DNA of 64,000 nt from positions 1,775,412-1,839,411 of the forward strand of contig JADJCV010000004.1 in assembly GCA_016703025.1 (NCBI GenBank). The letters run 5' to 3'. Positions 2,516 to 43,837 of this stretch are shown here, one piece after another. This stretch comes from Candidatus Avedoeria danica. Its GTDB lineage: Bacteria > Chloroflexota > Anaerolineae > Epilineales > Epilineaceae. The translations under genes were made by a program, and so were the position numbers. How positions within the stretch are numbered: position 1 is the stretch's first letter; every line of letters starts with the position of its first letter. The notes beneath the pieces were generated by a model, which saw only the letters and a list, made by a program, of their open reading frames with translations, was not told the origin of the DNA and ran no database searches.

Positions 2516-4174
2516 TTGCTCCGCAACCTGCGCTGGCAGATCGCGCTTGCCGCCGCCGGCGTCGCGCTCATCGGCCTTGTCCTGCTGTTCGTCTCCAACC
2601 GCGCGTTCGAGGATCGACCGGCCCGCGGTGGACAGGTCGTCGAAGCCGTCGTCGGCCGTCCGGGCACGTTCAACCCGGTGCTGTCCACGAGCGATGTCGA
2701 GATCGACGTCGCGCGGCTGCTGTTCAGCGGGTTGACCCGCCCCGACAGCGACGGCTCGATTCGGCCCGACCTGGCCGCGGAGTGGTCGATCAGCGACGAC
2801 GGCCGCGTGTACACCTTCCAGTTGCGCGATGCGGTCTGGCACGACGGCTATCCGGTGACGAGCGACGACGTCGTCTTCACGGCCCGGCTGGCCGGCGACG
2901 ACGCCGTCGGGACCGCCAAGCACCCGCTCGCCGCGGCGTGGCGGGACGCCGTGGTCGAGGCGGTCGATGCCACGACGGTCCGCATCACGCTGCGCGAGCC
3001 GTTCGCGCCGTTCCTGGCGGCCACGACGATGGCGCTCGTCCCGGCCCACATCTTCGCCGCCGTGCCGATCGGTGAGATCGCCCGCCACGAGGCCTCGACG
3101 CTGGCCCCGATCGGCACCGGACCTTGGCGCCTCGACCTGCCGGGCGGCCTCGAGCAGGACCAGATCCGGCTCGTGCGATTTCAGCGCCACTGGGACATCA
3201 CCCGCCGCCAGCCCTACCTTGACGGCATGACGCTGCGCTTCTACGACAGCCAGGCGGCCGCGCTCGAGGCGCTCGGGCGGCGCGAGGTCCAGCTGATGGG
3301 CGGCGTGACCCCGGACGCGCTCGCGTTGCTGGGCGATGACGTGCGCCAGCTCAACGCCGTGACGGGCGACTACACGCTCGTCTACCTGAACCCGGCCAAA
3401 GTGCTGTTCGCCGACGCACCGGTCAGGCGCGCCCTCGGCCTGGCGATCGACCGGAGCGGGATCATCCAGGACGTGCTGCGCGGCCAAGGCGCCGTGGCCA
3501 AGAGCCCGATCCCGCCCGGCTCATGGGCGTACGACGCCACTGTGCCCGCGCCCACGTTCGACCGCGCCGCGGCCGAGCAGCTGCTGACGGACGCCGGTTG
3601 GATCGACATCGACGGCGACGGGATCCGCGACCGCGACGGCCGCCCGCTGCGCTTTGCGCTCGACGTGTTCACCGGCGACACCGAGCTCCTGGCCGTTGCC
3701 GGCCGTCTGCGCGACGACTGGCAGAACGTCGGCATCGGCGTCGACGTGCGGCCCGTCGGCCAGGAGGAGATCCGCACGGCGCTGACGGAGCGGAGCTACG
3801 AAGCGGCGCTGTACGGCGTCCGCGCCCGCATGGACGACGACCCGGACCCATACCCACTGTGGCACAGCTCGCAGTCGGAGTCCGGACTGAACTTCGCCGG
3901 CTACGCCGACGCCCAGTCCGACCAGCTGCTCGTGGCGGTCCGACAGATGACCCCCGAAGACGTCGACGGGCGGCGCAGGTTGTACGGCCTCTTCCAGGCC
4001 CGCTTCGCCGAGCTCCAACCCGCCCTCCTGCTCTATCATCCGGTCTACACGACGGCGGTGGTCGACCCGAACCTCGGCGGCGTCCAGCTGCCGGCGTTCC
4101 TCGCCGAGCCGGCCGACCGCCACTTCACCGCGCGCGACTGGTTCGTTCGGACGGAGCGCATCTTCGGGAAGTGA
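2516..4174 (+). CDS. ABC transporter substrate-binding protein, family 5 (peptide/nickel type), membrane-anchored
   Basis: 552-aa protein with an N-terminal TM anchor and SBP_bac_5-like sequence throughout. TTG start 4 nt after the secG stop. Confidence 0.8.
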   Translation: MLRNLRWQIALAAAGVALIGLVLLFVSNRAFEDRPARGGQVVEAVVGRPGTFNPVLSTSDVEIDVARLLFSGLTRPDSDGSIRPDLAAEWSISDDGRVYTFQLRDAVWHDGYPVTSDDVVFTARLAGDDAVGTAKHPLAAAWRDAVVEAVDATTVRITLREPFAPFLAATTMALVPAHIFAAVPIGEIARHEASTLAPIGTGPWRLDLPGGLEQDQIRLVRFQRHWDITRRQPYLDGMTLRFYDSQAAALEALGRREVQLMGGVTPDALALLGDDVRQLNAVTGDYTLVYLNPAKVLFADAPVRRALGLAIDRSGIIQDVLRGQGAVAKSPIPPGSWAYDATVPAPTFDRAAAEQLLTDAGWIDIDGDGIRDRDGRPLRFALDVFTGDTELLAVAGRLRDDWQNVGIGVDVRPVGQEEIRTALTERSYEAALYGVRARMDDDPDPYPLWHSSQSESGLNFAGYADAQSDQLLVAVRQMTPEDVDGRRRLYGLFQARFAELQPALLLYHPVYTTAVVDPNLGGVQLPAFLAEPADRHFTARDWFVRTERIFGK

Positions 4175-4251
4175 TCTTCGGGAAGTGATCTTCGAACAGT
4201 GATCTTCGATCCGTGATCTTCGGACGTTGGTCTTCGGACGGGTAATCTTCG
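4159..4251. repeat. Tandem array of about 7 copies of a ~14-bp unit with core GTGATCTTCGG
   Basis: Copies begin at about 4159, 4172, 4187, 4201, 4215, 4229 and 4244. The first copy overlaps the last codons (..ERIFGK) of the SBP gene, and the array ends about 20 nt before the FtsB-like ORF. Confidence 0.8.
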
Positions 4252-4268
4252 GACAATAGGTCGATCCG

Positions 4269-4841
4269 TTGCCCCGATCGACCGTACTGCGAGGTGAGCC
4301 GATGGGACCGTCGACACCGCCCGGGACGACGCCGGAAGGGCCATGGCCGGTCGAGCCGACGCCGGCCGAGCCAACGCCGGCCGAGCCAACGGCAGCGACG
4401 TCAGCACCGTCCGCGCCCATGCAGTCTGAGCCCGTGCGGTCGGAGCCGCCGCGGCGCCCGCCGCCGCCCGCGCCGCCCCTCTCCCGCGCCAGCAGCCCGG
4501 GCGCACGCCGCGTCGTCGTGCTGGCCGTGTTGGCGCTGCTGTCGGTGTACACCGTTCGGCTCGCCCGCCAGTTCGCCGTGTCCCAGAGCGCCGAGGCCAA
4601 GCGCCTCTCGCTGGCGGCGCGCGTCGCAGCGCTCGAGACCGAGACGGCCGCCATCCAGACCGAGACCGCCTTCGCCGGCAGCGACGCCTACGTGGAGCGC
4701 TGGGCACGCGAGGACCAGCACATGGTCCGCCCCGGCGACCAGCCCGTCCAGGTGGCGCTGGCCACGCCGAGCACGCCGGCGGCGGGGACGCCGGAGGAGC
4801 CGGGGTTGTTCGAACGGTTATGGGGGTGGTTGCGGCGGTAG
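4269..4841 (+). CDS. FtsB/DivIC-like septum formation initiator family protein
   Basis: Pro-rich N-terminus, a single TM helix, then a coiled coil ending ..AYVERWAREDQHMVRPGDQPV, which is typical of FtsB/DivIC. An alternative start is the ATG at 4302. Confidence 0.55.
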   Translation: MPRSTVLRGEPMGPSTPPGTTPEGPWPVEPTPAEPTPAEPTAATSAPSAPMQSEPVRSEPPRRPPPPAPPLSRASSPGARRVVVLAVLALLSVYTVRLARQFAVSQSAEAKRLSLAARVAALETETAAIQTETAFAGSDAYVERWAREDQHMVRPGDQPVQVALATPSTPAAGTPEEPGLFERLWGWLRR

Positions 4842-38172: not shown

Positions 38173-41103
38173 CTAACGCAGTCGGGGCGGACGCCGGACG
38201 GTGAATGCGCGCACGACGAGCGGCAAGTAGACCCGCGGCCCGTGCTCGGGCGAGAGCCCGAACAGGACGGTCGTCGTCGTCCCGTCCGTGACGAAGGCGC
38301 CCTGTTCGGCCGGGCCGGTGACCACCCAGCCGGAGGGCGGCGCGACGCTCACGAAGAAGACGCCGGTCGGGAGGGTCGCACAGACAGGACGGTCCTCGCG
38401 GCTGCGGAGCTGCCGGTAGGTCGTGTGGCGGTCCGTCAGCACGTCGATGAGGACGTCGCTCTGCGCCGCCTCACCGGCGTCGCGGAAGCCGTCGCGGTTG
38501 CGGTCGTCGAACACGTCGACGCAGACCGTTCCTTGCGGGCCGTTCACGGTGGGTTCGGGCGTCGGCGAGAGGGTCGGGGCGCGCGTCGGCGGGAGCGTCG
38601 GGCCGCGGGTGGGCGTGGCGGTCGGACGCGGCGGGCTCGGCGTCGCGCTGGGCGTCGTCGGCGCGCGGGCGCCGAAGGCGAACGTCACGGACGCTTCGGC
38701 CATCGGTGCGCTGAAGTCGTATGCCCGCGCTCCGGAGGCCACGAGGTTGCGCGGCAGCTCGACGAGCTCGAGGCGGTAGGCGCCGTCCGCGAGGCCGCTC
38801 CAGCAATGATCGGGATCGTTCGAGCCGTCCGTCGTCCACGTGATGAAGACGCCCGAGAGCTGGTGCGTCAGCCGAAGCGTTGCCCCGGCCAGGAACCGCT
38901 CGCCGGCGTCGCGCCGGCCGTCGCCGTTGCGGTCGTCGAAGGCGATGATGCACGCCTGGCGGCCGGTAAACGTGGCGGGATCGCGCGTCGGGGTCGGCGG
39001 CCCGCTTGGCGTGTGGGTGGCCGTCACGCCGGGCGGCGTCGGCGTGGCGGAAGGGGTGCGCGGATCGACGGTCGGGCCGTCGGTCGGCGGCGGGACGGTC
39101 GGTTCGGGCGGTCGGGTCGGAGTGGCGCTCGGCGTCGCACTGGGCGTTTGGGCGAGGGCGGTCAGGGCGAGCCACGTGGCCGTGGCGCCCGGCCCTGCCG
39201 ACGCCGTGACGGCCGGCGCCGCGGTCATCGTCGCAATCCAGGCCGAGGTAGCGGTCGCGGCGGCAGCCGTCAGGGTCGGTCCGGCGATGACCGTCGCGGC
39301 GACCTCGGTGCGGAACGCCGCGATCGTGGCCGTGGCGCCGGCGACGGCGGTGGCGGTCTGGGCGATCGGCGGGACCGTGGCCGACGGCGTCGGGGACACG
39401 GACGGCGTCGGCGACAGCGTCGGCACGGCCGAGACCGTCGCGATCGATGTGGACGGCGCTGTGGCGGTGATCGACGGCGTGGCGCTCGAGCCGCCGCCCG
39501 TCGTCGGCGACGTCGGCGGCGTCGGCGACGCGGTCGGGACAGGGGTCAGCGTGGCGGCGAGGCCGATCGCGTAGCTGACGACGAGCGCCGGGCCGCTGGC
39601 GGGATCCGGCGGGGAGGGCTCGCGGTTGTAGACGTCGACGCCGGAGTGCCACGCCGCCAGGTTGTTCTCGTCGGGCAGCGGACCGTCGACCCGGAACGAG
39701 GCGCGGCCCGTCCCGTCGACGCGCGCCTCGAGGAGCGGCAGCTGCGCCGGCGCGAACCCGAACGCGTTCTTCCGCCCGGGCAGGAGGTCGGTCTCCTCGA
39801 GCGAGAGCCCGATCTGGGCCGCGATGGCCGCCGTGCTGACGGTCGTGAACGTGGCATCGCGCCAGCCCGCATCGATCTGCTCGTTCAGCAGGGCGAGCTT
39901 CCACTCGCCGGTCTTCAGGAACTCGTTCGTCTGGCCGATGAGCTCGACGCGCGCGCCAAGGATGTTCGCCTCGGGCGGGATCTCGGACAGATCGAACTGG
40001 ATCATCCCGTAGTGCGGGTTGTCGCCGCGGCCCCACATGCCGGCGTAGATCGAGGCGTAACCCAGGTGGTTCTTCCGGTCGCGCTGCGCCGAGACCTTGG
40101 GCACGTAACCGACGTCGGCGGGCGCGGGCCGGAGCGTGATCGTGTCGAACGACTGGGCGGGCGGCGGCGTCGGCGTCACCGTCGGCGGCGGGCCGGCGTA
40201 CGTCGGCAGCGGCGTCGGGGTGACGGTGGCGTTGCCCGCCAGCCACTGGGCGGCGTCGGTGTACTCCGTCTTGCAGTCGCGCGGGCAATACTTCACGGTC
40301 ACCGTCGCGCGGTCGACGACCTTGATGATCCCTTGCGCCTGGTTCGATTCCTGCGTCGAGAACCGCAGCGGCTGGACCGCCCGGAACAGCGGGAACGATG
40401 CGGCGTCCTCGACGAGCTCGACGAGGATGCCGACCGGATCGGCGTCGCTGACGACGCGAACGGTGATCCGGTCCTTCTTGGAGGCGTCGAGGTTCGCCGC
40501 CGGGTCGCGCGCCGTGATGTCCGCCTGCGCCGCAGCGCCGTAATAAACGTCGGCGTCGAAGGCGACGTAGAGGCCGACGTACCACTCGATTCCGGCGCCG
40601 ATGCCCGAGAACGGACCCTCGGGCCAAACCGCCGACGTGTAGTACGGGCTGCCGCCGGGCGGAATGCCGTTCTTCTTCTCGAACGTGATCGTCTCACAGC
40701 CCACACCACTGTACACGATGCCGTCGGGGTGGTTGACGAACTGCCGGCCGCCGCCCGAGTCCTTGACGAACACGCGGACGAGGTCCTCGAACGAGTGGCA
40801 GTAGATGATGTGGACGGTGTCCGTGCCCGCCGGGAACTCGGTGACGCCGGGGCCCTGCATGCAGTGGTTGTCGTCCAGCTGGGCCTGGTAGGTCTCGTCG
40901 CACATGTGGAGGTGCCAGGCCGGCGTGATGACCGGGGTCGTGCAGTACGGCGGGCAGGCCTGCGCGGCGGCGCGCGGCGGCACGGCCGTGGACACGACGT
41001 CCAGCACGAACAGCAGCGCCGACACCGCAATGCACAGGCCGAGCGGCCCGAGGCGGCGTGCGGCGCTCCGCAGGGGGGCGGAGGGCTGCGGGAAGGTTGC
41101 CAT
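38173..41103 (-). CDS. Large secreted multidomain protein with a Cys-rich N-terminal domain, the shared ~150-aa module, Pro/Thr/Ala linkers and two SdrD-B-like Ca-binding domains
   Basis: Signal peptide, then ..MIQFDLSEIPPEANILGARVELIGQ.., which matches the module in the S8 protein. Two C-terminal FDDRN[GR]DG[RF]RDAGE repeats follow. Confidence 0.75.
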   Translation of the reverse strand: MATFPQPSAPLRSAARRLGPLGLCIAVSALLFVLDVVSTAVPPRAAAQACPPYCTTPVITPAWHLHMCDETYQAQLDDNHCMQGPGVTEFPAGTDTVHIIYCHSFEDLVRVFVKDSGGGRQFVNHPDGIVYSGVGCETITFEKKNGIPPGGSPYYTSAVWPEGPFSGIGAGIEWYVGLYVAFDADVYYGAAAQADITARDPAANLDASKKDRITVRVVSDADPVGILVELVEDAASFPLFRAVQPLRFSTQESNQAQGIIKVVDRATVTVKYCPRDCKTEYTDAAQWLAGNATVTPTPLPTYAGPPPTVTPTPPPAQSFDTITLRPAPADVGYVPKVSAQRDRKNHLGYASIYAGMWGRGDNPHYGMIQFDLSEIPPEANILGARVELIGQTNEFLKTGEWKLALLNEQIDAGWRDATFTTVSTAAIAAQIGLSLEETDLLPGRKNAFGFAPAQLPLLEARVDGTGRASFRVDGPLPDENNLAAWHSGVDVYNREPSPPDPASGPALVVSYAIGLAATLTPVPTASPTPPTSPTTGGGSSATPSITATAPSTSIATVSAVPTLSPTPSVSPTPSATVPPIAQTATAVAGATATIAAFRTEVAATVIAGPTLTAAAATATSAWIATMTAAPAVTASAGPGATATWLALTALAQTPSATPSATPTRPPEPTVPPPTDGPTVDPRTPSATPTPPGVTATHTPSGPPTPTRDPATFTGRQACIIAFDDRNGDGRRDAGERFLAGATLRLTHQLSGVFITWTTDGSNDPDHCWSGLADGAYRLELVELPRNLVASGARAYDFSAPMAEASVTFAFGARAPTTPSATPSPPRPTATPTRGPTLPPTRAPTLSPTPEPTVNGPQGTVCVDVFDDRNRDGFRDAGEAAQSDVLIDVLTDRHTTYRQLRSREDRPVCATLPTGVFFVSVAPPSGWVVTGPAEQGAFVTDGTTTTVLFGLSPEHGPRVYLPLVVRAFTVRRPPRLR

Positions 41104-41158
41104 GGCTCGCGGGTTGAGACGTGCAGGACGGCGCCGGCGTTACGGTCAGCCGATGGAC

Positions 41159-41229
41159 GGATCGGGTGAGGGATCGGGGGAGGGATCGGGGAGGGATCGG
41201 GTGAGGGATCGGGTGAGGGATCGGGCAAA
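41159..41229. repeat. Tandem array of 6 copies of a 12-bp unit GGATCGGG(T/G)GAG
   Basis: Copies start at 41159, 41171, 41183, 41194, 41206 and 41218. The array lies in the divergent intergenic region between the 976-aa gene and clpC. Confidence 0.8.
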
Positions 41230-41263
41230 TGATCTATCGCGTCTCTGATACGGCGCGGCGACG

Positions 41264-41300
41264 TCTTCATTGGCGGGCCGTCTGGCCGCCGCTTATACTT
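41264..41300 (+). promoter_or_regulatory. Candidate clpC promoter (-35 TTGGCG, 17-nt spacer GGCCGTCTGGCCGCCGC, -10 TTATACT)
   Basis: Hexamers read about 40 nt upstream of the clpC start. The spacer is a partial palindrome. Confidence 0.3.
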
Positions 41301-41335
41301 GCGGCCAGTGCGATCAAGTGAGGAGACGCCCGAAC

Positions 41336-43834
<2,499 letters not shown>

Positions 43835-43837
<3 letters not shown>

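Follow-up and report, generated by a model that had tools for sequence, protein, structure and literature searches.

A gene for a ClpC-type chaperone and a divergently oriented gene for a 976-aa secreted protein are separated by a short tandem array of 12-bp units. The question raised by this locus is whether the array controls one or both of these genes, or whether it is a repeat that occupies the space between their promoters. We find that the array is an intergenic VNTR, which is an already known class of element. Specifically, we consider it likely that this VNTR is young, restricted to a single lineage, and situated in the sole unconstrained DNA between two conserved, back-to-back core promoters. 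We favor this explanation because relatives lack the array, because its copy number varies, and because both promoters are retained.

Structure and Position of the Array

The window, by which we mean the whole 64-kb stretch of DNA that was analysed, has a G+C content of 71%. The first-pass annotation had reported a six-unit array of 12-bp repeats at 41159–41229, between the divergent clpC and 976-aa genes, and both the sequence and a TRF analysis bear this out. The array consists of five full units and one partial unit of GGATCGGGTGAG, and one of the units is 11 bp long:

41159–41170: unit 1, GGATCGGGTGAG
41171–41182: unit 2, GGATCGGGGGAG
41183–41193: unit 3, GGATCGGGGAG, 11 bp
41194–41205: unit 4, GGATCGGGTGAG
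41206–41217: unit 5, GGATCGGGTGAG
41218–41229: unit 6, partial, GGATCGGGCAAA, 8/12 matching

TRF describes this segment with a period of 12, 5.7 copies, 94% matches, and a score of 120, which is the top TRF score in the 64-kb window. Searching the same window for the GGATCGGGTGAG 12-mer with up to two mismatches returned 19 matches, four of them in the array, compared to 24.5 expected from shuffled sequence. Because the top TRF score coincides with a chance-level 12-mer count elsewhere, the units must be regarded as non-randomly clustered at this site and not as dispersed. The array therefore displays the head-to-tail arrangement of 10–100 bp units, well above chance, by which VNTRs (minisatellites) are recognized. 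Its surroundings are organized as follows:

38173–41103, − strand: gene for the 976-aa secreted/surface protein, with a signal-peptide-like N-terminus and an SdrD_B (CnaB-like) domain
41117–41143, − strand: predicted ECF-sigma-like promoter of the 976-aa gene, a conserved bipartite motif
41144–41158, no strand: left spacer from the ECF-like −35 to the array, GGTCAGCCGATGGAC, identical in all conspecific assemblies
41159–41229, no strand: the array, a 12-bp minisatellite (VNTR) detected by TRF, polymorphic in seven conspecific assemblies and absent from sister lineages
41233–41269, no strand: block ATCTATCGCGTCTCTGATACGGCGCGGCGACGTCTTCA abutting the clpC −35, recognized by sequence conservation
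41270–41299, + strand: sigma-70-type clpC promoter from the promoter scan, TTGGCG, 18-nt spacer, TATACT
41336–43837, + strand: gene for the ClpC-type AAA+ chaperone, 833 aa, with the Pfam domains Clp_N, AAA, AAA_lid_9, AAA_2, and ClpB_D2-small

The distance from the array to the start of the 976-aa gene, given earlier as about 55 nt, measures 56 nt to the ATG. On the other side, the roughly 100 nt assigned to the interval between the array and the clpC promoter needs correction: the clpC −35 is only 40 nt away, and 107 nt is the distance to the clpC start codon.

Core Promoters on Either Side of the Array

Homologues of the 833-aa protein carry the name ClpC in their sources, and its gene is preceded by a Shine–Dalgarno sequence (GAGGAG, 41320–41325). 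The 976-aa gene has a GC3 of 0.93–0.94. The divergent pair of clpC and a gene for an SdrD_B protein is kept in all relatives examined.

On the clpC side, the −35 element TTGGCG at 41270 and the −10 element TATACT at 41294–41299 form the sole promoter-like site in the region 40900–41500, where 0.0 such sites are expected. The pattern TTGnnn-N17/18-TATACT recurs on this side in 14 of 14 loci. Equally constant is a bipartite motif on the opposite side, CGTAACG-N16/17-CGTC, which ends 13 nt before the 976-aa ATG in all 14 loci. Its two halves are invariant in seven lineages down to 79% ClpC identity, whereas the sequence of the spacer between them differs. This motif consists of a −35 GTAAC (41143–41139), a 17-nt spacer, and a −10 CGTCT (41121–41117) located 13 nt before the ATG, and it matches once in the window compared to 0.07 matches expected. 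In ECF consensus promoters, the −35 element contains AAC and the −10 element CGT(C) (PMC5758882). From this pattern of conservation we infer that the motif is a putative promoter of the secreted-protein gene with ECF-type architecture. Its position about 13 nt from the ATG, with a transcription start predicted near 41110, would imply a very short leader. A scan of 10 nearby candidate ORFs revealed no gene for an ECF sigma factor.

The block ATCTATCGCGTCTCTGATACGGCGCGGCGACGTCTTCA is near-identical in the closest relatives (L092, L094, and L095) and recognizable in L089 (90% identity). In the window, the array stands between this block and the divergent ECF-like promoter. In L089, the block takes up the greater part of the 56 nt that separate the two −35 elements, and in the relatives with such a 56-nt gap it adjoins both promoters. 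The block could possibly be an operator common to both divergent promoters. CGTCT occurs in it at 41240 and again 22 nt further on, at 41262; the ECF-like −10 contains the motif a third time, in inverted orientation.

Around the clpC −10, an inverted repeat (CTGGCCGC/GCGGCCAG) spans 41282–41308, and similar but different palindromes are present at this position in L089, L093, and L090. An RNA or DNA hairpin formed by CTGGCCGC and GCGGCCAG was considered and rejected as not convincing, with a covariation term of the alignment fold near 0.

Strain-Level Variation of the Array

To compare copy number between strains we used seven conspecific assemblies, namely the window and six contigs (L001–L006), all of which encode an identical ClpC protein. 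Proteins identical to both ClpC and the 976-aa protein are found in NCBI MAGs annotated as Ardenticatenales bacterium (Chloroflexota) and in several wastewater metagenome assemblies. The clpC genes of the six contigs are 99.80–99.96% identical to that of the window at the DNA level. In an alignment of the intergenic region from the seven assemblies all flanking bases are identical, and every difference is confined to the array:

L001: six perfect units
L003, L005, and L006: six units, G>C at the end of unit 2
L004: three units
L002: six units plus an extra 8 bp
Window: a G-for-T change and one 11-bp unit (units 2–3)

The comparison of repeat number between isolates that had been proposed for this locus thus yields a range from three to six-plus units. 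Among the seven assemblies we observe three length classes, with six units in the majority. Copy number differs (3, 6, and 6-plus units) between conserved flanks in strains with at least 99.8% clpC identity, as is characteristic of a VNTR.

How reliable are these alleles? The three-unit allele of L004 is known from one short-read contig. The short-read assemblies were built at k = 127 or 141, which exceeds the length of the array, so both the three- versus six-unit difference and the G/C substitution probably reflect true variation. Irregular units (GGGGGAG, the 11-bp unit, and the extra 8 bp) occur only in the window and in L002 (GCA_963852785.1, 1.9-Mb contig; region 2746–3010), and they are absent from every k = 127/141 short-read assembly of the strain cluster. 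The megabase size of the contigs suggests that both the window and L002 are long-read assemblies, and their irregular units may be residual long-read errors of the homopolymer type, left by basecalling or polishing of a repeat rich in G and in GATC. Repeat-internal differences in long-read MAGs should for this reason be read with caution. Two Logan contigs assembled at k = 31 terminate within the array and give no copy number; such breaks are expected of k = 31 assemblies at a genuine repeat.

The G>C variant restores the flank junction between GAC and GGATCGGG. By recreating this junction, the allele fits a duplication or unequal exchange in a 24-bp register in which the flank took part.

The Orthologous Spacer in Relatives

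A ClpC search of species-representative genomes returned no relative closer than 64% identity. Closer loci, seven from six further lineages, were obtained by protein search and protein cluster look-up. Their clpC nucleotide identity to the window and the gap between their −35 elements are:

L092: 96–97%, gap 117 nt (sister lineage)
L094 and L095: 96–97%, gap 237 nt (sister lineage)
L089: 90%, gap 56 nt
L093: 90%, gap 56 nt
L090: 80%, gap 75 nt
L091: 80%, gap 59 nt
Array-bearing strains: gap 91–135 nt

Neither the array nor any other tandem repeat is present at the orthologous site in L089–L095, despite conserved synteny and promoters. In the sister lineages, this site is filled with unrelated sequence of very different length, again with both promoters retained. 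Among the loci examined, the array is confined to one strain cluster. It is transient on an evolutionary time scale, as VNTRs are: it postdates the split of the strain cluster from lineages about 3–4% divergent, and it is still changing. A survey of 80 genomes for conserved tandem arrays upstream of clpC produced just five sporadic and unrelated ones.

At the inter-promoter site that holds the array in the window, L094 carries a 120-nt hairpin-forming palindrome (1253–1372 of that locus), and the same sequence is found in L095. Its DNA fold has a predicted energy of −80 kcal/mol (z = −12), and at the 3′ end it repeats the pre-existing flank CCGGCAGCTGAAGCTGGCCGG in inverted orientation. The spacer of L092 is that of L094 and L095 minus the palindrome, whose arm was also not found in the window. 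This palindrome may represent a MITE-like element or a quasipalindrome generated by template switching. Since the palindrome and the array share the same site, the spacer evidently tolerates, and has repeatedly acquired, large unrelated insertions.

Operator and GATC-Family Readings

The array had been described as matching none of the known heat-shock operators, and a motif comparison agrees. As consensus sequences we used TTAGCACTC-N9-GAGTGCTAA for CIRCE, RGTCAAANANRGTCAAA for CtsR, and CTTGAGT-N7-ACTCAAG for HAIR. CIRCE has no match at up to seven mismatches, and the best CtsR match within the array agrees at 8 of 15 specified positions (7/15 mismatched). The best HAIR-like site (CTTGCGG-N7-GATCAAG, 10/14) is located outside the array at 41298–41318, overlapping the predicted transcription start site. 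We rejected this site as an operator: it is within chance (about 0.1 expected, an estimate) and is not conserved in L089, the 90% relative. An Rfam scan of both strands of 40900–41500 returned no match at E ≤ 10.

The proposal that the array serves as a binding array for a regulator of clpC or the secreted-protein gene fares poorly. Every relative, even at 96–97% identity, lacks the array while both promoters are conserved, and the copy number ranges from three to six. Conserved or reused sites, the hallmark of direct-repeat or iteron-type binding arrays, are not what we observe here. The suggestion of a family of GATC-centred tandem elements is likewise unsupported. GATC occurs 578 times in the 64 kb, or once per 111 nt, which is 1.02 times the number expected from a second-order Markov model, and a GATC within the repeat unit is unremarkable because this tetramer is common and present at expected frequency. 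The array places seven GATC sites in 75 nt, with a local observed/expected ratio of 1.02, and no Dam methylase or regulator was identified. The second supposed family member, at 4160, has a 14-bp unit unrelated to the 12-bp unit at 41159. We conclude that the array is neither a conserved heat-shock operator nor part of a GATC element family. What looked like an operator array of clpC is a strain-level minisatellite and not a new heat-shock control element. Among the first-pass interpretations the G-quadruplex motif, described below, stands, whereas the operator and GATC-family readings fall.

A scan of public metagenomes for two perfect units (24-mer) detected two unrelated loci only. This is a weak negative and hardly informative for other parts of this genome, since the scan missed the known positive L006, a JGI contig. 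One of the two hits, L088, is a 2.5-copy chance site. In the other, L087, an unrelated metagenome contig, the 24-mer lies at 1540–1575 within coding sequence of GrpE-like context and specifies an (EGSG)n linker, a coincidental match that has nothing to do with the array.

G-Quadruplex Potential

Read on the + strand, the array amounts to a series of twelve telomere-like G3N3 hexamers, which a regex scan reports as a predicted G-quadruplex (G4) motif:

41164–41225, + strand: G-quadruplex motif, 12 G3–5 tracts, loops of 1–3 nt

This motif is the longest of eight in the 64 kb and the sole intergenic one. Its G4Hunter score has a mean of 1.65 and a maximum of 2.32. With G4 formation allowed, ViennaRNA predicts two G4s and a minimum free energy of −38.2 kcal/mol for the array, as compared to −13.8 kcal/mol without. 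The array thus satisfies the thresholds for a G4 motif (at least four G3 tracts, loops of at most 7 nt, G4Hunter above 1.5), and the earlier idea of a G-quadruplex-like structure gains a strong candidate at the motif level from the G4 prediction that had been called for. On general grounds it is very likely that the single strand of the array folds as a G4 in the presence of K+. The inter-promoter spacers of the relatives contain no G4 motif; the G4 matches in L092–L095 fall in a G-run within the 5′ end of the 976-aa gene, outside the spacer. Minisatellites that form G4s are unstable in length (PMC3486850), and by analogy G4 formation may help to explain the length instability of this array.

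Origin of the Array and Alternative Explanations

If the array is indeed a young VNTR in promoter-spacer DNA, replication slippage or unequal recombination in 12-bp (and 24-bp) registers would create and resize it, and folding of the G-rich strand into G4s would probably promote these length changes. Under this model, we infer that the array does not function as an operator. Physically, its chief consequence would be to place about 36–80 bp more between the ECF-type promoter on one side and, on the other, the clpC promoter together with the conserved block upstream of it. Each unit would add about 1.14 helical turns, so that one side is rotated by about 50 degrees against the other. If expression is affected at all, this would be a copy-number-dependent by-product, either of spacing and insulation or of a G4 roadblock, and not a conserved regulatory function.

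A different reading of the same length variation is that the array is a contingency locus, in which unit number tunes the ECF-driven surface-protein gene (or clpC) by changing the distance or helical phase between promoter and upstream elements. Copy number does differ between near-identical strains, a second intergenic VNTR exists within the same window, and the array begins upstream of the surface-protein gene, 16 nt from its putative −35, which is a classic location for contingency repeats. Moreover, copy-number variation of promoter tandem repeats is an accepted mechanism of phase variation in another high-GC bacterium (PMC12817950). However, neither core promoter includes the array (it is 16 nt from the ECF-like −35 and 40 nt from the clpC −35), so the spacing between −35 and −10 elements is unaltered, and the unit itself contains no promoter hexamers. 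Just three length classes are seen in seven assemblies, mostly with six units. Sister lineages do without the array and have unrelated spacers of 56–237 nt, which suggests that the promoters are insensitive to spacer content. We therefore regard tuning of this kind as unlikely. It is rather improbable that the structural potential of the array is its function, in the sense that negative supercoiling generated by the divergent promoters would fold up to three G4s on the + strand and an i-motif on the C-rich strand, and that these structures would modulate or couple the promoters. Such an element is favored by the twelve G3+ tracts with loops of 1–3 nt, by the mean G4Hunter score (1.65), and by the 24 kcal/mol that G4 folding is predicted to contribute, as well as by the position of the array exactly between the promoters and by the cruciform-capable palindrome at the same site in a sister lineage. 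According to PMC7015867, bacterial promoters are enriched in G4 motifs, and these are more stable in high-GC genomes. Yet no orthologous spacer keeps G4 potential, the three-unit allele has about six G-tracts, which is enough for one G4 and half the potential, and G-rich repeats arise easily at 71% GC. A broader version of this idea would make the spacer a selected hot spot for non-B-DNA inserts, the copy-number-variable G4 array in one lineage and the perfect 120-nt palindrome in its sister, which could absorb negative supercoils from transcription and insulate or tunably couple the promoters, so that array length becomes a heritable rheostat; we consider this a long shot.

We hold it very unlikely that the array recruits a transcription factor to 12-bp direct repeats, similar to iterons or PHO boxes, or that it forms a Dam-dependent GATC switch of the pap/agn43 type. 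The attraction of this reading lies in six to seven regular, identical sites, each with a GATC, upstream of two stress/surface genes. It is opposed by relatives that conserve the promoters without the array, by the unconstrained copy number, and by a 12-bp period that is out of helical phase. The unit is not above chance elsewhere in the window, and the metagenome scan, which missed the known positive L006, found no array; GATC is very common and at expected frequency, and neither Dam nor a partner regulator was identified. There is a negligible chance that the array is a product of misassembly or belongs to a small coding sequence. An ORF on the + strand (40904–41248) does remain open through the array, where the unit, a multiple of three, encodes Gly-Ser-Gly-Glu; in a metagenome gene unrelated to this locus the 24-mer codes for an EGSG linker, and the long-read assemblies show irregular units. 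But the array is present in seven independent assemblies, including short-read assemblies at k = 127/141 that span it. The ORF runs antisense to the strongly supported 976-aa gene, it has no homologue and no ribosome-binding evidence, and the 11-bp unit shifts its frame. Since relatives lack the array, the ORF is also not conserved. For its antisense position to a strong gene, we rejected a GSGE-repeat protein as the product of this ORF. These comparisons leave the young VNTR in promoter-spacer DNA as the explanation that we prefer.

Relation to Known Repeat Systems

The array resembles the intergenic VNTR/MLVA loci of Mycobacterium and Burkholderia, which also consist of head-to-tail units of about 10–60 bp in a high-GC host. 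In both cases, copy number differs between close strains with identical flanks, and slippage or unequal recombination, the origin of such loci, probably also created the array. Unlike these loci, the present array has a short, 12-bp unit, is only as old as one strain cluster, and belongs to an uncultured Ardenticatenales (Chloroflexota) from activated sludge.

Promoter tandem repeats in M. tuberculosis (dop, lpdA, cysG-efpA) have been proposed to act as phase-variable knobs of expression (PMC12817950). They are similar to the array in that repeats of variable copy number directly precede genes of a GC-rich bacterium. The M. tuberculosis units, in contrast, measure 54–58 bp and duplicate the promoter itself (PMC12817950), whereas the 12-bp unit of the array is too short for a promoter and lies between, not within, the core promoters. 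A promoter scan inside the array detected no −35/−10 pair, so repeats of the M. tuberculosis type are not what we see here.

Contingency repeats upstream of promoters include the TAAA tract of Neisseria nadA and the 7-bp repeats of Haemophilus hmw. As in these systems, the tract lies upstream of a surface-protein gene, and its length could alter promoter geometry. Their units, however, are 1–7 bp long, occur in tens of copies, and switch at a documented high rate, while the array has three to six copies of 12 bp. Intergenic SSRs of Haemophilus are treated in PMC12721329.

Telomeric GGGTTA repeats, the human minisatellite CEB1, and promoter G4s share with the array a regular G3N3 pattern and many G-tracts, from which folding into stable G4s is expected (PMC7015867, PMC3486850). 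Unlike in those systems, the G4 of the array is a prediction only, and its motif is not conserved at orthologous promoters.

Should the array turn out to tune expression, it would provide Chloroflexota with a first case of a contingency repeat, or of a G4 rheostat, close to a promoter. Its study also delimits two conserved putative core promoters, one of them of ECF type, in a phylum with barely characterized promoters.

A Second VNTR in the Window

The second array, at 4160–4254, is made of about seven 14-bp units (ATCTTCGGGAAGTG-like) that are unrelated to the GGATCGGGTGAG 12-mer. Among conspecific contigs, it varies by −1, 0, +1, and +3 units with identical flanks. Both top-scoring arrays of the window are therefore VNTRs, and both lie mainly in the roughly 10% of the sequence that is intergenic. 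Because this array is also variable in copy number, intergenic slippage appears to be general in this population. The arrays at 41159 and 4160 share a mutational process and not a sequence family. Together they provide strain markers for an abundant uncultured wastewater Chloroflexota.

The second array begins in the last codons of an SBP_bac_5 gene (2516–4174) and is located upstream of a DivIC-like gene (4269–4841). Each of its units holds a small CTTC..GAAG palindrome. Apart from the repeats, other palindromic tetramers that contain all four bases occur near expectation in the window, and CTAG is strongly under-represented, with 12 sites observed and 45 expected (ratio 0.26).
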